From contig DVFU01000107.1 of assembly GCA_018713065.1 (NCBI GenBank), forward strand, positions 1 through 32,259: a stretch of 32,259 bases of DNA, in the 5' to 3' direction. The stretch's first letter is position 1; every line of letters starts with the position of its first letter. Of this stretch, positions 8,696-28,622 are shown piece by piece. Made by a program: the position numbers and the translations under genes. A model generated the notes under the pieces. It saw only the letters and a list, made by a program, of their open reading frames with translations. It ran no database searches and had not been told where the DNA came from. Source of the DNA: Candidatus Faecenecus gallistercoris. GTDB taxonomy: Bacteria; Bacillota_I; Bacilli_A; RF39; UBA660.

Positions 8696-9190
8696 TTACG
8701 AAACAGAATTCAAACAATCTAAAATAACTTGATACGATGAAACCAAAGAAGGAAGAGAACATTTTGCATTCGCAGCAGAAGGACTCGGCAATAAAAAAGC
8801 ATCGATATTCGTATTTGGTTTCATATATTTTTGATACAAGTCGTATGCTTTTCTCCCTGTACAAAAAACAAACTCAATTTGACTATTTTGTAAAAGTTCC
8901 GTCAAATCATTCACTTCGATATTTTTAATAGATGCATCGGAAGAACCTGAAATTTCACAAGAGGCAACCGTATCCCATAAAGCAATCCCATGGGAAAGTA
9001 AAAACTTTTTTTTCGCATCAACATCCGGTAAAGAAACACCAAACAAGGATTCCAAAATTCGCCAAAAACGATTTTGCGGATGGGCATAATAAAACCCAAC
9101 TTCCCTAGATTTTACGGAAGGAAGGCTGCCCAAAATCAGCACTTTACTAGACTTGTTATAAATCGGTTCCAATTCATGATAAACACGCAT
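8696..9190 (-). CDS. DNA-deoxyinosine (hypoxanthine) glycosylase, UDG superfamily
   Basis: LILGSLPSVKS, YYAHPQNRFW, GSSDASI, LPSPSAAN motifs. Confidence 0.88.
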   Translation of the reverse strand: MRVYHELEPIYNKSSKVLILGSLPSVKSREVGFYYAHPQNRFWRILESLFGVSLPDVDAKKKFLLSHGIALWDTVASCEISGSSDASIKNIEVNDLTELLQNSQIEFVFCTGRKAYDLYQKYMKPNTNIDAFLLPSPSAANAKCSLPSLVSSYQVILDCLNSVS

Positions 9191-9217
9191 AAAATCACCA
9201 GTTTTATTATACAACAT

Positions 9218-9919
9218 TTACTGAGAATTTAATATCCAAGAAACGACCGCTTTCTTAATCTCGTAATACTCCTCTTCTTCAAACTGCATGTTGGCAATAC
9301 AAAAACGTTTCGATGCAATATGAGCACAAAACATACACTCATCTAAATCAAAGCAATCCTGAATAAAAAAAGAATTACGAACTTTATTAGAACAAATGAC
9401 ACTGTAACAGTTGCTACAATCTTTAGAGTCATCCGTTCGAATACAAAAGCTACATGTCCCTGAACGTTGCGATGCAAGTAAATATTCGCAATGCGTACAA
9501 GAGTCACAAAAAATAAGATTTGTAGAATCGCTACAGCCAGTTGAGCGATATACGTTTTGACATCGATAAATAGTATCACTTTGAACCACATCAATAGAGT
9601 CATATACCCGTTCTGTAGTTGTAAAATTGATGGCATCCCACAAAGATATAATATCCGTCAAGGAATGAATTTCACGTTTTGGTACCATCCATCCTTCACG
9701 TTTATCTTTTAAAGCCATATTTTCATTGGTAATAAACTTGCCACTACTAACAGAATCTGCCCAAGTTGCAACTCCAGTGATGGAATCATGTACTTCTTTT
9801 GGTAAATGCACATCAAATGCGAACAACTTCAATATTTCATCCAAAGAATAAGGATTACTAGAACCAAACACTGCTAAAAAGATTTTTTGAACTATCTTTA
9901 ACGTCTTCTCATCAGTCAT
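9218..9919 (-). CDS. Cys/Ser-rich repeat hypothetical protein (likely beta-solenoid)
   Basis: Cys/Ser recurring with about 3/6-residue periodicity, ending in RFCIANMQFEEEEY. ATG at 9919 overlaps the upstream stop (ATGACTGA). Confidence 0.7.
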   Translation of the reverse strand: MTDEKTLKIVQKIFLAVFGSSNPYSLDEILKLFAFDVHLPKEVHDSITGVATWADSVSSGKFITNENMALKDKREGWMVPKREIHSLTDIISLWDAINFTTTERVYDSIDVVQSDTIYRCQNVYRSTGCSDSTNLIFCDSCTHCEYLLASQRSGTCSFCIRTDDSKDCSNCYSVICSNKVRNSFFIQDCFDLDECMFCAHIASKRFCIANMQFEEEEYYEIKKAVVSWILNSQ

Positions 9920-16832: not shown

Positions 16833-18802
16833 TCACGAATTAACAATTTTGGATATTGTTCTTGTACTTGTGAACTATCTTCATAAAGTCTTTTTAAAAC
16901 TCCATTAAATTCATCGTCTGACATTTCTTCAATCGACTGACAAATACTCTTATATTTATTAGAATCAAACTCATTTACTACTACCGTGCCATAATCTCCT
17001 TCATATGCTGCTGTGTAAAAAGGCCGTTTTATTTTAACGCCAGGTTCAATGAAAACATCAAGACCATGATTGTACATAAAGACACAATTGCCAGCCACAT
17101 AAATTTTATCTTTACCAACTTCGTTTTTGACACACTGAACATCATGTATCGTATCTGCAATTTTTTTACCATGATAATCCCTCAAAGTATGAAAACCATA
17201 ACCATCATCTAAAACAATCATATCATCTAAGAAACGAATATTAGAATATGTAATGCCAAATGATACCTCTTCCAAAGTATGAGAAGGAACTCCATAATGA
17301 CGATTAATTTCCATCAAATGCATACCGTCTTCCTTTTTGACAGCAAAATAAACAGAATCACAATCATAACGAGGAGTTTGACGACATTCTGGACAAATTT
17401 CAATTTGATCAAAAGTATCATTAGAAAGATATTTGCCCAATCCATATAATTTCTTTTTACCATCTTGTGTAACGCAAAAGTAATCATCTCCTAAATGTTT
17501 AATTTCTTCCACACCGAATAAATCAGAAGAATAAGAAGTTTTTAAACCATAGCCAGAATCATCATGATAAATAAAATAGTTTTTCCCTGAATCTGTAATC
17601 GCAATATTATCTAAAACTTTTCTTTCTTGATTCGTATCATATACATCACACTGTCCCTGATGATAAAGAGCAACACAAGAAGAAAACAAAGGTTTAATTT
17701 CATCATACTCTGCTGGTATTTGATATTCTGAAGTCGAATATAACAAACCGAATTTTCCATCTTTTTCTAAAAGAATCATATCAGAATCATCTGCAAGAGG
17801 CTGAACAGAATCATAGATTGGTTCACAGATATGCGTTAGCTCATAATAAAGCTCTCCATTGTCATAATTCAATTTTTCTTTTAAACAGAATACACCAACT
17901 TGTCCTTCTTTCAAATAAGTAAATAAATAGGGATAAGTAAAAGAAGAAACATCATCTGCCAAAAGTGACGTCATGATTTTTCCATCTTCGCGATCAATTA
18001 AATCAATCATTGAGCCGTGTTTTCCCATCATAATAAAAGAAGCGACTGGTTTCACATCATCAAAACTAGCATCCATCATCTTATCATTCGTATAATAAAA
18101 ATATTGTCCATCTTTCTTTAATTTCAAATCCACCAATTTTCCGTATTCAAAGTCTCCATATTCGTCAGCCAAAGAAATATCATCATATTCTAATTTCGTC
18201 TGAAATCCATCGACAGAATAAATACCAAATTTTCCGTTTTTAGATACAACATATTCGTTTGGTGAAATAAGTTGAACAGAATCATATTCTTCTGAAAATT
18301 CTTCTGGATGTTCCCGGTAACGAAGAGAATTCAGTATATGATACTTTCCAGTCTCTTCATCCATTACACCAAAAACTAAATCATCAGCCATAAAAGAAAA
18401 ATCATCCTGCAACTTTGCACCATCTACTATCATTTGATGCTTTTTAGCATCATATAAAGAAACCCTAGTATAATCTGAATAAGGTGTATTTCCATCATTG
18501 AATAGAATTTGATACAAGCCATCATCTACAAGACGACCTTCAAAATTATCAGAATTCGTTACAAAAAACACTTCATGATCAGGTGTCATCAACCCACTAT
18601 GATAATCGTCAATCTTAATTCCTAAAACACCTTGAGATCCTTTTTCTGTATAACGAGCGAAAGCCGGCACAAAAACAGTTTCCTTTTCCATCCTCATGTG
18701 ATGCTCCTTTGGCTTTGCACTCTGAGTTTGTTTAGACATTGCTTGCTCATTCCTTTTAAATTCTTCTCTACTGAACTTGTTAAAATCACTACTCTTTTTC
18801 AT
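16823..18802 (-). CDS. WG-repeat-like beta-rich hypothetical protein
   Basis: Repeated K(N/D)GKFG(I/L)...EYD(D/E)I units; acidic; no signal peptide. Confidence 0.65.
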   Translation of the reverse strand: MKKSSDFNKFSREEFKRNEQAMSKQTQSAKPKEHHMRMEKETVFVPAFARYTEKGSQGVLGIKIDDYHSGLMTPDHEVFFVTNSDNFEGRLVDDGLYQILFNDGNTPYSDYTRVSLYDAKKHQMIVDGAKLQDDFSFMADDLVFGVMDEETGKYHILNSLRYREHPEEFSEEYDSVQLISPNEYVVSKNGKFGIYSVDGFQTKLEYDDISLADEYGDFEYGKLVDLKLKKDGQYFYYTNDKMMDASFDDVKPVASFIMMGKHGSMIDLIDREDGKIMTSLLADDVSSFTYPYLFTYLKEGQVGVFCLKEKLNYDNGELYYELTHICEPIYDSVQPLADDSDMILLEKDGKFGLLYSTSEYQIPAEYDEIKPLFSSCVALYHQGQCDVYDTNQERKVLDNIAITDSGKNYFIYHDDSGYGLKTSYSSDLFGVEEIKHLGDDYFCVTQDGKKKLYGLGKYLSNDTFDQIEICPECRQTPRYDCDSVYFAVKKEDGMHLMEINRHYGVPSHTLEEVSFGITYSNIRFLDDMIVLDDGYGFHTLRDYHGKKIADTIHDVQCVKNEVGKDKIYVAGNCVFMYNHGLDVFIEPGVKIKRPFYTAAYEGDYGTVVVNEFDSNKYKSICQSIEEMSDDEFNGVLKRLYEDSSQVQEQYPKLLIREKK

Positions 18803-18869: not shown

Positions 18870-19892
18870 TTATTTTTTACGATATTGTCTTCCTCCACGA
18901 TGACATACTTCATCAAAGAGTTTTAAGTCCTTTAATTGAGACTCTTTAGACACAACCGAAAAGTTTAGTAAGAATGTCTTTAAAACATCTTCTTCATGCT
19001 CATCATAAAAAGTAGATAAAAATTCTGATGTCATATGCTCTTTTGTCATACTTTCCACCATCATTTGTTCAAATTCAGTTTGGACAGAAAAATCTTTTTC
19101 ATAGATTCCTGATAACACGCATTCTAAAAGAGCAATCTTTCTTTCATCTTCTCCTTGATTAAATGAAAGTCTAGCTTGTACTTGACGAATAACAGAATGA
19201 TAAAACTTATTTTTCTGTCGTTTCTCTTCTGGCAACTCGCGCAATACTTGAGTCATTTGTCGTAAATTATCCGGCATAAAGAATGGCGAATCAAATGCAT
19301 GCTTACTAAAAACAAATAATTCTAAAGCATCCGAAGCAGCCTCAACTACCGTGTAATAAACTTCTTCTTTTGGAGACACAGAGTTTTGACTTAGTAGAAC
19401 ATGAGATAATGGTGCCAAACAATCATAAAATTCGACAATATTTTCAAATTCAGAACGATAAAAAGTACTAACAACTGTCTGCTGATAAAGAGGCGACGGA
19501 TGATTTAAATAACAGCAAACATCATTTAACAACAAACAAAAATGAGCATAAGGAATCCGAATCGTAACATTGTGTTGCATTTGAAATGCGCCTAAAAGTA
19601 TATTATAAACTTCTTCCCGCTTAGAATCCAATTTTATTCCCATTTCTTGACGGTAATGTGTAATTTCTAAAAAATTGCCAAGTAACATACCAAATACTAA
19701 AGATTTAGAGACATGGGGAAACTGTTCTACTATATAATCATAATATGGATTAGGTTCTTGAAACAAAATATATCTACCTATACGTTCGATTGTTTCGTCA
19801 TAAGAATAATATTTAGATGAAATATCAATAATACTTTTAAAACACTCTGAAACTTCATCACTTAAAAATACGACATCTTCTGTTCTTTCCAT
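18870..19892 (-). CDS. Hypothetical protein
   Basis: Long ORF; GGAGG SD precedes MERTED at 19892; no motif recognised. Confidence 0.65.
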   Translation of the reverse strand: MERTEDVVFLSDEVSECFKSIIDISSKYYSYDETIERIGRYILFQEPNPYYDYIVEQFPHVSKSLVFGMLLGNFLEITHYRQEMGIKLDSKREEVYNILLGAFQMQHNVTIRIPYAHFCLLLNDVCCYLNHPSPLYQQTVVSTFYRSEFENIVEFYDCLAPLSHVLLSQNSVSPKEEVYYTVVEAASDALELFVFSKHAFDSPFFMPDNLRQMTQVLRELPEEKRQKNKFYHSVIRQVQARLSFNQGEDERKIALLECVLSGIYEKDFSVQTEFEQMMVESMTKEHMTSEFLSTFYDEHEEDVLKTFLLNFSVVSKESQLKDLKLFDEVCHRGGRQYRKK

Positions 19893-20006
19893 AAAAACCC
19901 TCCTGAATATAAGTATAGTATAACAGAAAAAATGACTTACAAAGGAAATTATTTTTCTTGATATTGAATTCAAAATATCCATTTTAAAATATAGATAGCC
20001 TTTTGA

Positions 20007-20396
20007 TTATTTTTCCTCTAAAAGATGATCCTTTATCATCGTAGAAGAGATTCCTCCCGTTCGTTCAATATGAACAATCTTACAAGAATCATTTAAATAA
20101 TCAAAGTAATGCGTCGTTGTAACCATCACATCGATTTGTAAATCTTCTAACATTTGAGGAGTAATTTCACGATCCCGCAAAATAACTTCATCTACCACTT
20201 TGAAAGAGGAAATCATCTTCATTCGAATCTCTTCATTAAAATACGGATTCTTTCCCTTTTCTTTGGCAAGTCTGTCCGAAGTGACATAGACAATTAAATA
20301 ATCTCCATATTTTTTAGCACGTTCCAAATAACGAACATGGCCATAGTGAACGATATCAAACGTACCATGAGCAAGAACTTTCTTCATACGATTCAC
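20007..20396 (-). CDS. Cytidylyltransferase family protein (TagD-like)
   Basis: HGTFDIVHYGH (HxGH) and RTGGISST motifs. Confidence 0.85.
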   Translation of the reverse strand: MNRMKKVLAHGTFDIVHYGHVRYLERAKKYGDYLIVYVTSDRLAKEKGKNPYFNEEIRMKMISSFKVVDEVILRDREITPQMLEDLQIDVMVTTTHYFDYLNDSCKIVHIERTGGISSTMIKDHLLEEK

Positions 20397-20504
20397 TTCC
20401 TTATTTTTATTGTATCAAAAAAACATAGAGAGTCGCTAGAAATTACTTATCTACAATTGTTATTTTATCTATTTTTTGCTAAAATTTGAAATAGGAGGGT
20501 TTAT

Positions 20505-21056
20505 ATGTTAGATAAAGACGCAATCAAAACAGAAATCACAAGAAATAGCATATATGTAGACGGTGGAATCGATCACATTAAAGATGACTACATAGAAGTT
20601 ACTTTAGGAGACACATTGAAAGTATACGATGCTCCCTATTTAAGTATCACAAATCCTACTTCAACAAAAGAATTTAAAATGGATGAAGATGGATTTATTT
20701 TAAAACCAAACGAGTTATACATCGGTAGAACGCAAGAGTATACCAAAACTTATGGATTCGTTCCCTTACTAGCAGAAAGTGAAGAACTAGCAGCAGTCGG
20801 AATGGAAATCCACGTAACAGCAGGATTCGGGGACAACGGATTTGAAGGCACATGGACCTTAGAAATTGTCTGCACCAATCCAACCAAAGTATACCCTGGC
20901 ATGCCAATTGGACGTGTCTATTACTACCCTTTAATTGGAGATGCTGATATCGAATATCGCGGAAAATACTTTGGACAAGTAGAGCCGACAGCTTCTAGAT
21001 TATCACAAGAATACGAAGGACAGAAAGTGATGGTGAAAAAGAATGTTAACAAGTAA
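20505..21056 (+). CDS. dcd: dCTP deaminase family protein, single domain (motifs 3 and 5 intact; 1, 2, 4 degenerate)
   Basis: LKPNELYIGRTQE, IHVTAGFGDNGFEGTWTLEI, YRGKYFGQ. Confidence 0.85.
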   Translation: MLDKDAIKTEITRNSIYVDGGIDHIKDDYIEVTLGDTLKVYDAPYLSITNPTSTKEFKMDEDGFILKPNELYIGRTQEYTKTYGFVPLLAESEELAAVGMEIHVTAGFGDNGFEGTWTLEIVCTNPTKVYPGMPIGRVYYYPLIGDADIEYRGKYFGQVEPTASRLSQEYEGQKVMVKKNVNK

Positions 21057-22116
21057 TGAAATTAAAAAACAAATCGATAATGGCACCATCCAAATTGAAA
21101 ATATGGCGGAAGATGCTTTAAAAAAGCCAAACAGTTGTGACCTTCGAATCGGAAATGTTCTATATGTATTCGATTATGAAATTGTCGACACCAAAAATTG
21201 TAAAAATTATTTACAAGAAGTATTAAAAGATCAAATTAGTCATTTAAGAAGAGTCGTGATTCCAGAAACAGGATTACTATTAGAACCACATAAAGTATAC
21301 TTAACCAAAACAGTGGAAAAAATAACGACGAACGGTTACGTTCCTGTCATGAATGGAAAAACGATGTTATCTTTACTAGGTGTCAGTGTCGAACTAACGA
21401 ACGGATATAAAACGGATCACTTCGATGACCATTTACTATTAAGTATCATCGCATCCAAACCGACAATTATTTATCCAGATATCAAAATCGCCAACTTAGC
21501 ATTTTTCCCTAGTTTAAAACCATCAAACGAAATCAGAAAAATAGACGATCAAAAATCTTGTGGATTATATCAATCCGGAATGCTAAGTGGAACAGAGATT
21601 CAAAAAAGAATGCAATGCGATAATCCGGATATTATCATTACACCACAAGATAACATTGTCATCAATCCAAACTCTGTCAACCTAACCTTAAATGATACAA
21701 TTGCCATTTATTCTGATCCAGTATTAGATATGAAAAAAGAAAATGCAACTCAAAAATTTCAGATTGGAGAAGATGGTATTTGGGTTTATCCAGATGAAAT
21801 CTATTTAGGCAGAACCAACGAATGGACTGAAACGAATCGTGTCGTACCAATGATGAGTGGCCGTAGTTCTTTAGGTCGCAATGGCCTTCACGTTCATTGC
21901 TCTGCTGGGATGGGTTCCCTAGGATATAAAGGATATTGGCATATGGGAATTAGACCAGTCAAACCACTTAGACTAGTCAAAGATATGAAATGTTGTCAAA
22001 TCTACTACTTAACCGCCGAAGGAGAACAAGATAAAAACTATCAAGGATATATGCAAAATATGTCAGGCGAACAGTTAAGTAGTCCTTTATATAAGTCATT
22101 AACCAAAAAGAAATAA
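21043..22116 (+). CDS. dcd: dCTP deaminase family protein, two tandem domains
   Basis: Two repeats starting MLTSNEIKK and MLSGTEIQK. The second has NPNSVNL, GRSSLGRNGLHVH and CCQIYY. Overlaps the upstream dcd gene. Confidence 0.85.
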   Translation: MLTSNEIKKQIDNGTIQIENMAEDALKKPNSCDLRIGNVLYVFDYEIVDTKNCKNYLQEVLKDQISHLRRVVIPETGLLLEPHKVYLTKTVEKITTNGYVPVMNGKTMLSLLGVSVELTNGYKTDHFDDHLLLSIIASKPTIIYPDIKIANLAFFPSLKPSNEIRKIDDQKSCGLYQSGMLSGTEIQKRMQCDNPDIIITPQDNIVINPNSVNLTLNDTIAIYSDPVLDMKKENATQKFQIGEDGIWVYPDEIYLGRTNEWTETNRVVPMMSGRSSLGRNGLHVHCSAGMGSLGYKGYWHMGIRPVKPLRLVKDMKCCQIYYLTAEGEQDKNYQGYMQNMSGEQLSSPLYKSLTKKK

Positions 22117-22130
22117 TAATAAATAATACG

Positions 22131-22160
22131 AAAGAAGCAGGGAATCTTCCCTGCTTCTTT
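22131..22160. terminator. Bidirectional Rho-independent terminator
   Basis: Perfect 13-bp inverted repeat AAAGAAGCAGGGA-ATCT-TCCCTGCTTCTTT between convergent genes. Confidence 0.85.
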
Positions 22161-22178
22161 CATATGATAAAAACAAAT

Positions 22179-22898
22179 CTAATTTTTTGTGACAGATGCT
22201 ATCTTATTTTTTCTAAAATGCTTATAAACAAAAACGATAACTACCCCGGAAATAAAACGTATCAAAATATCATCAATATCGAAAATGGCAAGCAATAAAG
22301 TCCATTTAAGAATTTCTAACAAAATATTAGTCAAAAGTAAAAATCTAAAAAGATGTTGTTTCTTTTGTTTAAAATTCAAGCAAAAGATTCCAATAATAGA
22401 GCCAATTATAAAGTTAACGATAATATTTCGCAACAAATTCATATAATTACCGGACTGTATCGTAGAGATGATATTGATAAAAGGAATAATTGAAAAATTA
22501 TTCCTTAACGTAAATAATGTCATATTGTCAAATCCTTGAAAGTCAGTAATCAAATATAAAATCATCATAAAAAGAAGAATTCCAAATAACAGGAGTAAAA
22601 GATAATGTTTCTTACCTTGTTTGTTGAAAAGAGCGAAAGTATGTAATAACAAATTAATATCCTTTTTTTGGGCATTATCTTCTTGATTGGAATATTCACC
22701 ATTTAAAAGTTCTAAAACAGAAACATCCAAAACTTTAGACAAAGGCTCTAAAAGAGAAATATCGGGAAGTCCTACACCACGTTCCCAACGCGATACCGCT
22801 TTATTTGTTACACAAATTTGATTGGCCAATTCTTCCTGTGTAAGACCTTTCTTAGTTCGTAACATACAAATAAACTTACCAACACGTTCTGAATCCAT
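22179..22898 (-). CDS. XRE-family HTH protein fused to a VanZ-like membrane domain
   Basis: LTQEELA...AVSRWERGVGLPD HTH; C-terminal IIPF...NIIVNF...FDIDDILI. Confidence 0.8.
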   Translation of the reverse strand: MDSERVGKFICMLRTKKGLTQEELANQICVTNKAVSRWERGVGLPDISLLEPLSKVLDVSVLELLNGEYSNQEDNAQKKDINLLLHTFALFNKQGKKHYLLLLLFGILLFMMILYLITDFQGFDNMTLFTLRNNFSIIPFINIISTIQSGNYMNLLRNIIVNFIIGSIIGIFCLNFKQKKQHLFRFLLLTNILLEILKWTLLLAIFDIDDILIRFISGVVIVFVYKHFRKNKIASVTKN

Positions 22899-22996: not shown

Positions 22997-23560
22997 TTAT
23001 CTATTTTGTGCCTTCTTTTCCAACGACTCCAACATATCTTGAATGAGTAAAACGGTCTCATTTTGACGTCTTCCCTTTTTATGGACCATCTCATTCCATT
23101 CTTCTAAAACAGTATGAACATTAGATTCATTTACTTTATCATGAAAAATTTGAAGAGCCGTTTTTTGATAATCCATAAGAGCAACTGCTCCTAGTGCACG
23201 ATAATAGGCAACTTCTGGAATATCGGACTTATAATAAAAATCAAGTGCCATTTCATCTGTTACTTTTCTAGGATTTTGAAGAATGATTTTATTAGAACGA
23301 AACACTCCATGCGGTGTAGCAGAATCTACTACATCGATTACTTCTGCATCAGGAGGAACGATAACATCATATAGCGTATCACCACGATGAAGCCAACGGA
23401 TAATTTTACTTTCCTGCGAAAAATTAAATCCACCAAAATCTTTTCCAGATTTTGCAGTAGGATCCCAATGAGATGCGACATTGACTTCCCCAATTTGATA
23501 CCGAACAGATGAATCCGCTCCACTATTTTCACCAAACATCACTTTTAAATATTTTGTCAT
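22997..23560 (-). CDS. Hypothetical protein
   Basis: GAGGAG SD precedes MTKYLK at 23560; conserved-looking GGFNFS...LYDV...FRSNKIIL core. Confidence 0.7.
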   Translation of the reverse strand: MTKYLKVMFGENSGADSSVRYQIGEVNVASHWDPTAKSGKDFGGFNFSQESKIIRWLHRGDTLYDVIVPPDAEVIDVVDSATPHGVFRSNKIILQNPRKVTDEMALDFYYKSDIPEVAYYRALGAVALMDYQKTALQIFHDKVNESNVHTVLEEWNEMVHKKGRRQNETVLLIQDMLESLEKKAQNR

Positions 23561-23568
23561 TTGAAACT

Positions 23569-23649
23569 TCACTCCTCTATACAAGAATTCAACAACATAA
23601 TAACATTAAATAAATCATTATCATGTTTGTTTATATTATGCTTTACCAT
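23569..23649 (-). pseudogene. Probable internally deleted mazF/pemK remnant (26 aa)
   Basis: ATGGTAA start/stop overlap with the antitoxin gives MVKHNINKHDNDLFNVIMLLNSCIEE*. Confidence 0.35.
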
Positions 23650-23903: not shown

Positions 23904-24488
23904 TCACAATAAAAGAAAAGAAACAACTAAATAAAGTAAAATCGATGGAAATAACAAAAGAACAAGATTAATAAAGTAAATAAGAAAGATTTGACAATCT
24001 TGATATCCAACTACAGATAAAAGATATATAGTATCCTTTTCATAATAGATTACCGCACCAATCGTGAAAACAATCAACAAAAGAAAGATGCCCAGTAAAA
24101 ATTTACTAATCGAATAAAATGATTCAACATATTCTAAATTTGCTTGATACCGTTGATCAATAGCCAAAATAGCATCTTCTTTATACTTTTCATAATCTGT
24201 AAGTCTAGAAAACCAAACTTTATAATACGTATCATTAGAATTATCTATAATTCCATTTTCCATCCAATCTTCCTTTGGTATTGGAATGGATGTTCTAATA
24301 TCCTTTATTGGAATCGATTGATATTTAGAAGTGGAAGCAATTAAATACCAATCGTAATTATCAATATCAATTTGATCTACCTGCCACAAATTATAGCAAG
24401 TTACACAATAAAATATAGCAAACAGAAAAAATATAAAGCCAAAAATTCGAATATATTTTTTACGAAAAAATAACTGAATTAACATCAT
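23904..24488 (-). CDS. Short FtsX-like membrane protein
   Basis: N-terminal TM, loop, then C-terminal TMs with EK..IYLL.VVGY; coupled to the upstream permease. Confidence 0.55.
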   Translation of the reverse strand: MMLIQLFFRKKYIRIFGFIFFLFAIFYCVTCYNLWQVDQIDIDNYDWYLIASTSKYQSIPIKDIRTSIPIPKEDWMENGIIDNSNDTYYKVWFSRLTDYEKYKEDAILAIDQRYQANLEYVESFYSISKFLLGIFLLLIVFTIGAVIYYEKDTIYLLSVVGYQDCQIFLIYFINLVLLLFPSILLYLVVSFLLL

Positions 24489-25615
24489 TTTACATCACTT
24501 ACCTTATACCCTCTACTTGCCAATAAAAATATTTTAGTTAAAACAAAATTAATTACAACTTCTAAAATGAACATAATTCCGAAAATTAGAATTGGCAATG
24601 TTGGCATGAATCCCATCGCAATATCGTACGGATGAGTCCATATAAAAATTGCCACTCCAATCCAGTAGAAAATAAATGCGAGAACAATCGTAATAAGACT
24701 ACTAATCACATTTTTTATAGAATAGATACTAGAAATTTGCCCATATCGATATCCGTTCATTAAAAAAATCATAATATTCTTTTTTTCTTTCAAAAAATAA
24801 ATATACAAATACGACAATCTCACAAACAAATACAAAAACGCACCAATCACGAGTTGAGTAAAGATAGATTGATATATTTTTGCAAGTCCTTCATAATCAA
24901 CCGTAATAGGAGTATGTGTCATAGCACCGAGTTCCTCCGCTTGTTCACGAATAGAATCAACATTTTTTGCATCATTTGTCATAACGACATATACACCTTG
25001 AATTGTCGTAAATTCATCTAATAAAGACTCTTGAACATCACCAATGGTAAGCATATCGTCATGAGACAAAAAAGCCGCATTATTAGAAAGACTAAAATTC
25101 GTTGCATCAACAATACCGACAATCTCTACTTCGCATGCTTCTTCCCCACCAACAGAAATTGTAACTTTCTTGCCAATCAATTGTTGCCCTTTTATTGTTT
25201 TCCCATCAATTGTTAATTCCAAATAATTGGATGCAATCATCTGACCGGCTTGCAAATTTTGAATTTCCGCACCTGCAAAATCCATATTACTTGGAACAGA
25301 ATAAAATTCTAACGGTTGTTCTTCAATCTGAGCACGAATATAGACTTCATATTCATTTAAAAAAGCATCGACATTTGGAAGATTGCGAATCTTTTTATAG
25401 ACTTCTTCATCCCCATCTGGAACAGTCACATAAATACGATGCGCAGCAATTGCATCCTCTGTCATGATTTTAACAAAATTTTGTTGAGTAAAGAAATATG
25501 TAAGATACCCTAACAAAAACAAGAGTAAGAGTGTAAATATCAAAATTTGAATCCAATCCCGTTTATTTTTTATAATTGTTTTTCTGGCCAAAAAAATTTT
25601 ATCGTTTAGAAACAT
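24485..25615 (-). CDS. FtsX-like ABC transporter permease
   Basis: 1+3 TM layout with extracellular domain, EKKNIMIF..NGY; GAGG SD precedes ATG at 25615. Confidence 0.72.
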   Translation of the reverse strand: MFLNDKIFLARKTIIKNKRDWIQILIFTLLLLFLLGYLTYFFTQQNFVKIMTEDAIAAHRIYVTVPDGDEEVYKKIRNLPNVDAFLNEYEVYIRAQIEEQPLEFYSVPSNMDFAGAEIQNLQAGQMIASNYLELTIDGKTIKGQQLIGKKVTISVGGEEACEVEIVGIVDATNFSLSNNAAFLSHDDMLTIGDVQESLLDEFTTIQGVYVVMTNDAKNVDSIREQAEELGAMTHTPITVDYEGLAKIYQSIFTQLVIGAFLYLFVRLSYLYIYFLKEKKNIMIFLMNGYRYGQISSIYSIKNVISSLITIVLAFIFYWIGVAIFIWTHPYDIAMGFMPTLPILIFGIMFILEVVINFVLTKIFLLASRGYKVSDVK

Positions 25616-26282
25616 TAGAAACCTCAATCAACTTTCCGTCTTTCAGTTCCAGACAATAATCAGCATAATCAAAAACTTTTTCATCATGAGAAACAACAAT
25701 TACACACAAACCTTCTTGGGATAAGTCTTTTAAAAGTTGAAATACTTTAATTGTATTTCTTTTATCTAGCGAACTAGTTGGTTCATCACACAAGAGATAT
25801 TTAGGGCGATTTGCTAATGCTCTTGCAATACATACTCTCTGTTTTTCACCACCAGATAATTCTTTAGGATAATGATTCATTCTTTTTTCTAATCCGAATT
25901 TTTTTAATAATTTTTTTGCGATTATGGTTCTCTCGTCTTTAGAAATATCAGAATTAACTAACATAGGTAACAACACATTCTCCAAAGAATTTAAGTAATC
26001 ATTTAAATCCATACTCTGAGATACATAACCGATATTATTTTTACGAAGTGAAATTAATTCCTTCCGATTTAACTTTGTTACATCGACTTTATCAAAAATA
26101 TAACTTCCCGAAGTCACTTTTTCCAATAAACCCAAAATATGAATCAAAGTAGTTTTTCCGGAACCGGACTCTCCAAAAATTGCATACAATTTTCCTAAAC
26201 GAAAAGAATAACTTAAGTCTTGTAAAACAGAAATATTTTTTCCTTTCTTTTTATAACTCTTACAAACATTTTTTAATTTCAT
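25599..26282 (-). CDS. ABC transporter ATP-binding protein (LolD-like)
   Basis: GESGSGKTT, LSGGEKQR, LLCDEPT, VSHD. Confidence 0.92.
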   Translation of the reverse strand: MKLKNVCKSYKKKGKNISVLQDLSYSFRLGKLYAIFGESGSGKTTLIHILGLLEKVTSGSYIFDKVDVTKLNRKELISLRKNNIGYVSQSMDLNDYLNSLENVLLPMLVNSDISKDERTIIAKKLLKKFGLEKRMNHYPKELSGGEKQRVCIARALANRPKYLLCDEPTSSLDKRNTIKVFQLLKDLSQEGLCVIVVSHDEKVFDYADYCLELKDGKLIEVSNVSKR

Positions 26283-27283: not shown

Positions 27284-27844
27284 TTACTTTTTTAAAATCA
27301 ATCGTTTGACCTCCTGCATATCATTTGCTCTTACTGCACCATATTCTTCGATAACAGAATCTGCCAAATCCAAATTATGATACGCCGTATACAAGATTTT
27401 CGTATCTGCATTTTCTAAATTAGAAAGTTTGTCATCCACTTTTACATCGCACTGTAAAACAGATTTATCTCCTAAAAAGACAAATCGATTGGGATCTAAA
27501 AACGGAAATGTTCTCGTTAAAAACTGATATTTATAATCGAGCAATACACCAGATTTGGACGCAACTTCCGGAATAATATAAGACGTTCCAATGTACACCT
27601 TATGATGCTCATTTAATTCTTTTAACAGTTCAGTAGCACCTTCTGTAACAGTCGCATAATCATATAAATTGTGCTGTAAGAAATACTCAAAAAAAGCCTC
27701 TTTATCAGGCACGATATCTTGCATGTAATACGTTTTAAAATCCGATTCCGTATAATGTGTTCCTAAATAAGAGTTAATCAAATATAAAAACCCTCCCGAA
27801 ACTAAAACATCATCCATATCAAACATAATTCTCATTTGTTCCAT
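27284..27844 (-). CDS. 5'(3')-deoxyribonucleotidase, NT5C-like HAD family
   Basis: FDMDDVL, K..FL...FPFL, DKS...DVKVDDK, TAYHN. GGAGG SD precedes ATG at 27844. Confidence 0.85.
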   Translation of the reverse strand: MEQMRIMFDMDDVLVSGGFLYLINSYLGTHYTESDFKTYYMQDIVPDKEAFFEYFLQHNLYDYATVTEGATELLKELNEHHKVYIGTSYIIPEVASKSGVLLDYKYQFLTRTFPFLDPNRFVFLGDKSVLQCDVKVDDKLSNLENADTKILYTAYHNLDLADSVIEEYGAVRANDMQEVKRLILKK

Positions 27845-27905
27845 AAGTCCTCCATTTGACTTTATTATAACAAAAGAAAAAAGACCGAACAAGTTTTTGT
27901 TCCGT

Positions 27906-28622
27906 CTATATTTTACGAAAAGCAACGACGATAAATGAGTTTTCCGGGTAGTAGTAACAAGTTTGCAAAAGTAAGATATCATCATCTGTTGAAACCGAAG
28001 CCCCCGTATCGTAAAGCGAGTTTTCTTTCAAATAATTTAAATGTGTTTGATACTCTTCTTCTGTAAACGATAACTTCATGTGTTCTACTTCATCTTTCAC
28101 AATCAATACAGCAAAAGCCTGATAACGATAGTAACCGTTCTCACTCCTAAGTGTCAAAATAGAATGTTCTGGATAAAAGGATTCATCCAAATACTGTTCT
28201 AAAATTTGAAACTCCGTATTGACGTTTCTAGAATTGTGTCCGTAGATTAATAACTTTTGATCGGTTAGAACATTCCGGTAATCTAGGAAGGTACTCCCCA
28301 TTCCATCAGGTTTTCCGCTCAAATCGTGATCTAAGTAAAACTCATTATCTTCTGCTTGCAACACAACGCTACTAAAATCCGTATTTTCAATTTCTATTTT
28401 TGCAATAATATCGTCATTTTGATACGTTTCTTTTAAAATCGCAATTTCGTTTTTGGTAGAAAATGGATTCGAAAACGAAACTGGCACCACATCGTGAGAA
28501 GGAGTCGGTGTAACGACCACCTCATACGGACTCTCAAAAAAGAAATTAGTGGAAGATAAAAAATGGATACAAATACCAATTCCAATCAAGGTGAAAGCGA
28601 CAATGAGTAATCTACGGTACAT
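27906..28622 (-). CDS. srtB: Class B sortase
   Basis: N-terminal TM, DNEFYLDHD, FLDYRN, LIYGHN, LLQTC catalytic Cys motif. Confidence 0.88.
   Translation of the reverse strand: MYRRLLIVAFTLIGIGICIHFLSSTNFFFESPYEVVVTPTPSHDVVPVSFSNPFSTKNEIAILKETYQNDDIIAKIEIENTDFSSVVLQAEDNEFYLDHDLSGKPDGMGSTFLDYRNVLTDQKLLIYGHNSRNVNTEFQILEQYLDESFYPEHSILTLRSENGYYRYQAFAVLIVKDEVEHMKLSFTEEEYQTHLNYLKENSLYDTGASVSTDDDILLLQTCYYYPENSFIVVAFRKI

Follow-up and report, generated by a model that had tools for sequence, protein, structure and literature searches.

A gene pair of the dCTP deaminase fold with complementary motif loss in Candidatus Faecenecus gallistercoris, and its predicted assembly around one composite active site

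We analysed a stretch of 32,259 nucleotides (nt) from Candidatus Faecenecus gallistercoris (contig DVFU01000107.1 of assembly GCA_018713065.1; called the window below), in which two overlapping genes, designated A and B-C, encode proteins with the fold of dCTP deaminase (Dcd) and dUTPase (Table 1). A preliminary description, made from the letters of the window, had proposed that the two genes supply exactly three domains of this fold, that these domains have lost their motifs in a complementary manner, and that the products form an asymmetric pseudo-trimer with one composite active site. Both open reading frames (ORFs) were found at 20505-22116, and Pfam gave three matches to PF22769 (DCD), one in gene A (E value, 2e-21) and two in gene B-C (E value, 7e-49), as expected for three domains. 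The motif strings quoted in that description were all present in the translations. When the whole genome (1.28 Mb in 133 contigs, 91.6% complete) was searched, domains A, B and C were the only DCD matches. The N-terminal part of B gave a marginal match to PF06559 (DCD_N), with 22.3 bits at a cut-off of 21.4. Against the NCBIfam dCTP deaminase equivalog TIGR02274 (cut-off, 92.8 bits), B-C scored above the cut-off with 120.9 bits, and A scored below it with 62.3 bits. The analysis confirmed the observation of a split, complementary gene pair and supported its interpretation.

The motifs were examined in an alignment of 45 A, 45 B and 45 C domains, taken from the window, genome G002 and 43 or 44 genome loci, together with 14 canonical single-domain relatives. 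Domain A retains motif 3 and the C-terminal lid; motifs 1 and 2 and the motif-4 Gln are lost, and an Arg stands at the Gln position. In the alignment to solved Dcd chains, TAGFGDNGFEGTWTLE of A lined up with TAGFIDPGFSGHITLE of M. tuberculosis. Among 31 A proteins, the residues H103, T105-D110, G112, F113, G115 and W117-I121 (including E120) of motif 3 were invariant, as were Y151, G153, K154, Y155 and Q158 of the lid. The mean column conservation over the 45 sequences was 0.97 for motif 3 and 0.82 for the lid with a background of 0.72, and the degenerate motifs 1, 2 and 4 gave 0.69, 0.65 and 0.75. Only domain A was found to have the catalytic Glu that closes motif 3, the residue altered in the mutant entries E138 of E. 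coli and E145 of M. jannaschii. Solved-chain alignment and conservation thus agreed with the division of kept and lost motifs proposed for A.

Conversely, the full motif 2 (G-R/K-S-S-x-G-R) together with the motif 1 and motif 4 residues was found only in domain C, being lost in A and partly lost in B. The residues G273, R274, S275, S276 and R279 of motif 2 were invariant in 31 B-C sequences, and SAGMGSLGYKGYWHMG of C lined up with TAGWIDAGFKGKITLE of M. jannaschii. Motifs 1, 2 and 4 of C showed conservation of 0.95, 0.92 and 0.82 (45 sequences; background, 0.71). At the catalytic position C has Gly, and the M. jannaschii E145A and E145Q mutant entries have Ala and Gln; because these mutant chains align there with the Glu of A and the Gly of C, the position of the catalytic Glu is fixed. 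The non-canonical motif 3 of C is itself conserved (0.88 versus a background of 0.71). The intact motifs 1, 2 and 4 and the loss of Asp and Glu from motif 3 were therefore as previously described, but the lid, which had been called decayed, is only half so, with Y333, G335 and Q338 invariant in the 31 sequences.

Domain B had been described as lacking most motifs. Its motif 3 is indeed decayed, with a conservation of 0.65 against a background of 0.70 in the 45 sequences and no counterpart of the Glu. Motif 1, on the other hand, is not lost, since K28-P29-N30-S31 (21124-21135) was invariant in the 31 B-C sequences. KPNS, the Gly of motif 2 (G105), SLLG and an Asn at the motif-4 position (N151) were each conserved at 0.9 or more. 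Domains of the B type are rare: 14 cluster representatives among 1.84 billion were found at E ≤ 1e-30, followed by scores at the generic Dcd level. In a quick tree, B sits on a long unplaced branch. The earlier suggestion that B serves as a scaffold is probably too simple, because KPNS of B and the altered motif 3 of C are strongly conserved; the accompanying idea that a dead interface may bind a ligand fits these data.

The complementary motif pattern was kept in at least 90% of the 45 sequences for each domain, so that the motif losses are conserved in relatives, and its recurrence across the aligned domains of all three kinds argues that it did not arise by chance. No single domain carries the full motif set, and therefore at most one complete site can form; the arrangement is not that of a homotrimer of identical subunits with three equivalent sites. 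A composite of A and C keeps all elements of the canonical relatives, i.e., NPNS, GRSSxGR, TAGFGDxGFxGxWTLE, Q and Y..GKY..Q.

The linkage of the two genes was analysed by a pattern scan with one genome per species, which yielded 60 loci, 44 of them (L014-L056 and L064, from 43 assemblies) with a B-C homologue. A lies directly upstream of B-C on the same strand at 39 of the 44, and A-B-C is one open frame at four (L028, L049, L051 and L053); at the last (L030), the contig starts inside B-C. A was thus present with B-C at 43 of 43 judgeable loci, 39 adjacent and 4 fused, in agreement with the co-occurrence anticipated for such a pair. At the split loci, the stop codon of A overlaps the start of B-C by 1-23 nt in 36 of 39 cases, and a gap of 1 nt separates them in the other three. 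Four proteins among 120 listed B-C homologues were fused, with 484-550 amino acids (aa) in the order A, linker, B, C. Gene fusion of this kind is classic evidence for parts acting in one complex. In the quick tree, A, B and C each formed one branch (support 100, 99 and 99), and the groupings within the three branches were largely parallel. Three fused loci were part of this tree (L028, L049 and L051); they fell into different subclades, and fusion therefore probably arose more than once. Two contigs of one metagenome-assembled genome carry separate B-C loci (L027 and L030), with 62% and 62% identity to the window, which could represent two binned strains or a real second copy. Several loci lie in records titled 'Muribaculaceae' although their genes group with Bacilli, which suggests that those bins are mislabelled. 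A tandem match in Rickettsiales (L072) was rejected as a single domain with insertions.

To describe the possible assembly, the domains and proteins were compared with solved structures and modelled as a complex. Each domain aligned to solved Dcd chains with Z scores of 10.6-12.1 (11-12 for A, and about 10.6-10.8 for B and C). The complex of A and B-C was predicted with a 31-row alignment per chain in three runs, along with three controls. The interaction prediction score from aligned errors (ipSAE) was 0.92 in all three runs, while the best of the three controls gave 0.00; the same mark is reached by 58 of 80 solved complexes and by 2 of 110 mismatched pairs. The runs agreed in at least 95% of contacts, and the predicted local distance difference test score (pLDDT) of the partner was at least 84. 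On the A side, the predicted interface comprised residues 88-112, 118, 120, 122-130, 141-151 and 154-155, which span the decayed motif 2 plus the intact motif 3 and lid. On the C side it comprised motif 1 (207-211), motif 2 (270-284), 306-312 and 321-324, and in the rest of B-C the decayed motif-3 region of B (117-136) and the B-C linker (155-185). The model thus placed motifs 1 and 2 of C and motif 3 and the lid of A in one interface, as proposed. Motif 1 (28-31) and motif 2 (104-112) of B and the altered motif 3 of C (285-302) lay outside the predicted A interface, and this last element should therefore face B.

In the parts of PMC12524310 and PMC4827122 that deal with rings of the Dcd/dUTPase type, each cleft is described as motif III of one subunit combined with motifs I, II and IV of the next, and the corresponding part of PMC4827122 describes DCD as sharing the trimer core, with its sites in the clefts between subunits. 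By this rule, the residue lists fit only one arrangement, in which motif 3 of A would meet motifs 1, 2 and 4 of C, the altered motif 3 of C would meet the altered motifs 1 and 2 of B, and the dead motif 3 of B would meet the dead motif 2 of A.

We consider it likely, from the motif patterns, the gene linkage and the complex model, that A and B-C depend on each other and together form a pseudo-heterotrimeric dCTP deaminase, in which A and C share a single composite site. The two chains of this enzyme would be translated in a coupled manner via their overlapping stop and start codons, and their three domains would take the places of the three subunits in a canonical dCTP deaminase trimer, following one another around the ring as A, C, B. 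One cleft of the three, A/C, would be catalytic. To it, A would contribute the motif-3 hairpin (Asp110 and Glu120) and the closing lid (Tyr151, Lys154 and Gln158), and C would contribute motif 1 (NPNS), motif 2 (GRSSLGR, whose Ser and Arg would bind phosphate and take part in catalysis) and the motif-4 Gln. The C/B cleft, with the altered motif 3 of C facing KPNS and G-K/R-T..SLLG of B, would be incapable of deamination, yet it is conserved; in the B/A cleft, both faces have decayed. What we infer are the actual order of the domains in the ring, the 1:1 stoichiometry, the substrate and the inactivity of either chain alone. Because the A/C site keeps every element of the canonical relatives, the most likely reaction is the deamination of dCTP, with dUTP or, one step further, dUMP as product, which would supply dUMP/dTTP synthesis in an A+T-rich genome (the G+C content of the window is 25-39%).

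The C/B cleft, being conserved without Asp and Glu, may bind a nucleotide as a regulator. It is conceivable, though we hold it to be doubtful, that the three clefts have three jobs, with A/C as the catalytic site, C/B as a second, non-catalytic nucleotide site acting as an allosteric sensor (e.g., of dTTP) and B/A as a dead structural seam. The sensor would then consist of HCSAGMGSxGYKGYWHxG and the lid (Y333, G335 and Q338) of C, together with KPNS and G-K/R-T..SLLG of B. If this were true, the competitive and cooperative dTTP control of the homotrimeric Dcd would have turned into a design with one catalytic and one regulatory site, and the evolutionary series from homotrimer through two-gene heteromer and 1+2 split to full fusion would be alive in relatives.

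Several points weigh against the assignment as an obligate heterotrimeric dCTP deaminase. The score of A (62.3 bits) lies under the NCBIfam dCTP-deaminase cut-off of 92.8. Since Dcd homotrimers have been solved, the complex score may reflect memory of that trimer; it may express likeness to a Dcd homotrimer and is not proof that the chains bind. The predicted apposition of Arg274/Ser275 and Glu120 was deduced from lists of interface residues and not from coordinates. The model of a natural fused chain (P0108), built from a 6-row alignment, was only moderate, with a mean pLDDT of 69.1, a predicted template modelling score of 0.72 and a disordered A-B linker, and the other four models of P0108 were at 49.7-62.9. 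Contigs from RNA libraries span the locus (one, X18 at 20979-22299, bridges the A/B-C junction, with no cover upstream of 20533, and that of X17 is 12,957 nt long), but they may be DNA and hence do not count as evidence of expression. The source genome also encodes a dUTPase-like gene, a cytidine deaminase and a weak ComEB-like deaminase; as these offer other routes to dUMP, the supply of dTTP may plausibly involve dCTP deamination but need not depend on it. Finally, the three-domain locus is sporadic, occurring in 6 of 151 sampled genomes of the order (G000, G064, G082, G105, G139 and G152), so that the pair is not essential to the lineage.

The other genomes of this order sample contained simpler forms. 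Two adjacent single-domain genes were found in two of the 151 genomes (G116 and G025), and G021 is a third case outside that count; the pairs lie at L078 1039-2082 (G116), L007 1026-1989 on the minus strand (G025) and L006 974-2022 (G021). In all three, the upstream gene keeps TAGFGD.GF.GTWTLE and the lid, with G-K/R-x-S-L-A-A/T-L-G in place of GRSSxGR, and the downstream gene keeps NPNS and GRSSxGR, with Gly in place of Glu. By this complementary split, any heterotrimer formed from the two genes can have only one complete site. The A clade was sister to the upstream genes of these pairs in the quick tree (support 89). From their motifs, the two-gene pairs seem to represent a less elaborate form of heteromer, whose composition was apparently fixed later, either by the 1+2 split or by full fusion. 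The G025 pair adjoins an RluA-like gene, named by eye. One full-length match was found in four of the 151 genomes (G048, G073, G111 and G132), and the other matches were partial, in frames of about 150 aa, and were taken as dUTPases. G048 has a fully canonical single-domain Dcd beside a thymidylate-kinase-like (tmk-like) gene. The match of G132 (L080, 664-1464, minus strand) and similar frames in G073 and G111 encode Dcd-like proteins of 266-274 aa with RGRTSFNRLG, a motif 3 without Glu (NPGFKGKLNLTLTN) and a C-terminal extension of about 90 aa; they represent a different subfamily of the Dcd fold in the same order.

Among the other explanations, it is rather unlikely that the heterocomplex forms and has a chemistry or role other than plain dCTP deamination. 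In that case it might be a bifunctional dCTP deaminase-dUTPase, might deaminate CTP or some modified or activated cytosine nucleotide, or might act mainly as a nucleotide-binding regulator. Substrate and product cannot be read from a sequence, this explanation would agree with the sporadic occurrence of the pair and the further dUMP routes in the genome, and the altered motif 3 of C and KPNS of B are conserved. A small HIGH-motif nucleotidyltransferase gene (20007-20396, minus strand), cytidylyltransferase-like and divergent, adjoins the pair in the window; it resembles TagD and domain II of RfaE and scored under both cut-offs. Such a gene stands beside the pair at 12 of the 44 loci in three different arrangements: divergent and upstream (L014, L019, L020, L022, L024-L026, L043 and L055), downstream on the same strand (L056 and L064), and upstream of a fused gene (L053). 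However, this link is weak: in the order sample, a match at E ≤ 1e-10 was obtained in no more than two three-domain genomes out of six (G000 and G105), but also in 19 genomes that lack the locus. A functional link between the nucleotidyltransferase and the pair was therefore rejected. Furthermore, the composite A/C site keeps every canonical Dcd-type element, and B-C passes the dCTP-deaminase equivalog (120.9 versus 92.8 bits).

Separate assembly, with A as a trimer and B-C as multimers in the manner of the Agrobacterium tandem DCD, each being a pseudoenzyme or having a function of its own, is very improbable. In its favour, 2R9Q, a DCD chain of two domains with a solved structure, can be superposed on B-C and was deposited without a third domain. 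Against it stand the strict adjacency or overlap at the 39 loci, the natural A-B-C fusions at four, the complex model (0.92 versus 0.00 in controls), and the complementary retention of motifs, which would leave every homo-oligomer short of one part of the site, the Glu or the Ser/Arg loop.

An anti-phage defence module, which would deplete dCTP upon infection from within a defence island, has still less to recommend it. The pair is patchily distributed, and the same window holds an abortive-infection-like Abi_2 gene (15056-16063, minus strand), a gene for an HD-domain protein (12785-14320, plus strand) and a gene for a HerA-like ATPase (9912-11783, minus strand). However, neither protein matched a PADLOC family at E ≤ 1, the ComEB-like protein was the sole and weak match of the genome to NCBIfam NF041025, and no defence-type gene recurred among the flanking ORF families of the 44 loci; the RluA-like gene by the G025 pair and the tmk-like gene by the G048 Dcd are of the housekeeping type. 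The known anti-phage dCTP deaminases have the zinc cytidine-deaminase fold. A defence role of the pair was rejected on the zero PADLOC matches and the lack of recurrent defence neighbours. The Abi_2 gene lies 4.4 kb from the pair, and the HerA-like ATPase gene has an unannotated neighbour (9218-9961, minus strand). These genes suggest some defence content in the window, with no link to the Dcd pair in other genomes.

That the split is an artefact, in which a frameshift from sequencing or assembly interrupts one three-domain gene, as the abutting frames and the existence of fused forms might suggest, is scarcely credible, because the 39 split loci come from different assemblies and have proper ATG or GTG starts with six different overlap lengths, and because the stretch, which is present in chicken-gut metagenomes of several studies by their records, showed substitutions but zero insertions or deletions within 20505-22116 in contigs of four runs from three studies.

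The pseudo-heterotrimeric arrangement was compared with known systems. The canonical Dcd and bifunctional dCTP deaminase-dUTPase enzymes (1XS1 from E. coli, 1OGH from M. jannaschii, 2QLP and 2QXX from M. tuberculosis, and 4XJC from B. halodurans) share the fold, the motif set and the location of sites in inter-subunit clefts. They are built from one gene, three identical subunits and three equivalent sites, whereas here two genes supply three different domains. To judge from the sequences, A/B-C would thus belong to the Dcd family in its descent and probably in its chemistry, whereas its predicted quaternary structure is of another kind.

The part of PMC8961515 on the monomeric dUTPase of Epstein-Barr virus (EBV; BLLF3; 2BSY and 2BT1) describes a duplication followed by complementary loss of motif copies, and herpesvirus dUTPase as one polypeptide with the order III, I, II, IV, V and a single site mimicking one site of the trimer. 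EBV 2BT1 aligned across residues 6-520 of the fused-chain model (Z score, 9.5), and A/B-C mirrors the herpesvirus motif order with III in A and then I, II and IV in C. The herpesvirus enzyme is viral, with two domains in one chain and a motif V, whereas the present pair is bacterial, with three domains in two chains, a lid of the Dcd type and no motif V; it does not belong to the herpesvirus-type monomeric dUTPases, which have one chain in the order given.

In Drosophila virilis dUTPase, as presented in the relevant part of PMC12524310, three linker-joined jelly-roll domains make one pseudo-heterotrimer, a layout shared by the four fused A-B-C loci. The repeats of that enzyme are described there as nearly identical, each with all five motifs, giving three active sites, whereas the domains here are diverged and complementary.

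The third likeness is to the tandem DCD of Agrobacterium tumefaciens (2R9Q; PF06559, PRK07559). The B-C part of the P0108 model (residues 203-522) superposed on the whole 2R9Q chain with a Z score of 24.7 and a root mean square deviation of 3.0 over 293 residues. No match in sequence was found between 2R9Q and the B-C profile or domain B alone, and B-C scored 16.3 bits for PRK07559 at a cut-off of 283 in NCBIfam; the likeness is thus structural, and marginal in sequence. We know of no paper on the function of 2R9Q. None of the three precedents combines a Dcd-type enzyme with a 1+2 split over two genes and complementary half-sites. In the open-access literature, searched by titles and the openings of abstracts, no description of a heteromeric or pseudo-trimeric Dcd was found.

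Trimers of the Dcd/dUTPase fold are textbook symmetric enzymes, in which neighbouring subunits share the active sites. The present family illustrates duplication of a subunit gene in which each copy retains only the half-site for one cleft; the copies would thereby become mutually dependent, and three sites would be reduced to one. Related gut bacteria hold the intermediates, i.e., the canonical single gene, the two-gene pairs, the 1+2 split and the fusions. The family may therefore offer a tractable natural system for the transition from homomer to obligate heteromer, and for asking whether dTTP regulation needs the cooperativity of three sites. Annotation pipelines would probably call each gene 'dCTP deaminase', and one source already gives a homologue this name. 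By the motif patterns and the model, neither gene should work alone, and the two should be counted as a single enzyme when the metabolism of these uncultured gut Bacilli is reconstructed.

Table 1. Features of the gene pair and its surroundings in the window
Feature	Position	Strand	Details
Promoter-like site	20457-20485	+	TTGTTA, 17 nt, TAAAAT; TG precedes second hexamer; upstream of gene A
Ribosome-binding site	20493-20499	+	AGGAGGG, 5 nt before the ATG of gene A; read from sequence
Gene A	20505-21056	+	183 aa, one Dcd-fold domain (ORF, Pfam, NCBIfam, alignment)
A motif 3	20811-20867	+	Residues 103-121, HVTAGFGDNGFEGTWTLEI; Asp110 and catalytic Glu120
A C-terminal lid	20955-20978	+	Residues 151-158, YRGKYFGQ
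Overlap of A end and B-C start	21043-21056	+	14 nt, ATGTTAACAAGTAA
Gene B-C	21043-22116	+	357 aa, two tandem Dcd-fold domains (ORF, Pfam, NCBIfam)
Domain B	21043-21558	+	Residues 1-172 of B-C; motif 3 decayed
Domain C	21577-22113	+	Residues 179-357 of B-C; motifs 1, 2 and 4 kept
C motif 1	21664-21675	+	N208-P209-N210-S211, invariant in 31 sequences
C motif 2	21859-21879	+	G273-R274-S275-S276-L277-G278-R279
C altered motif 3	21895-21948	+	Residues 285-302, HCSAGMGSLGYKGYWHMG; Asp replaced by Ser292, Glu by Gly302
C motif-4 Gln319	21997-21999	+	CCQIYY; invariant
G+C-rich hairpin	22126-22165	unassigned (scan gave minus)	Separates the convergent B-C and HTH-membrane genes
HTH (helix-turn-helix)-membrane gene	22179-22898	-	Convergent with B-C

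The promoter-like site is a pattern match only, from a consensus scan that gave 14 sites with 8.5 expected in shuffled sequences. The hairpin downstream of B-C is strong and likely a terminator. Sizeable ORFs around the pair (16823-18802, 18870-19982, 22997-23584 and 23904-25627, all on the minus strand; listed sizes 659, 370, 195, 194 and 380 aa) gave no Pfam match at E ≤ 0.001. In the source genome, which is 91.6% complete, no match to ThyA was found, and a 410-aa ORF on another contig (G000 contig C32, L076, 1399-2631, plus strand) has two weak ThyX (Thy1) matches under the thyX equivalog cut-off; the organism may make thymidylate with an unusual, duplicated ThyX. Elsewhere in the window, deoxynucleotide-handling functions are represented by a protein of the uracil-DNA glycosylase (UDG) superfamily (8696-9217, minus strand), by the 511-aa product of 12785-14320 (plus strand), which has HD and YfbR-like 5'-deoxynucleotidase domains, and by a 5'(3')-deoxyribonucleotidase of the NT5C type (27284-27985, minus strand).

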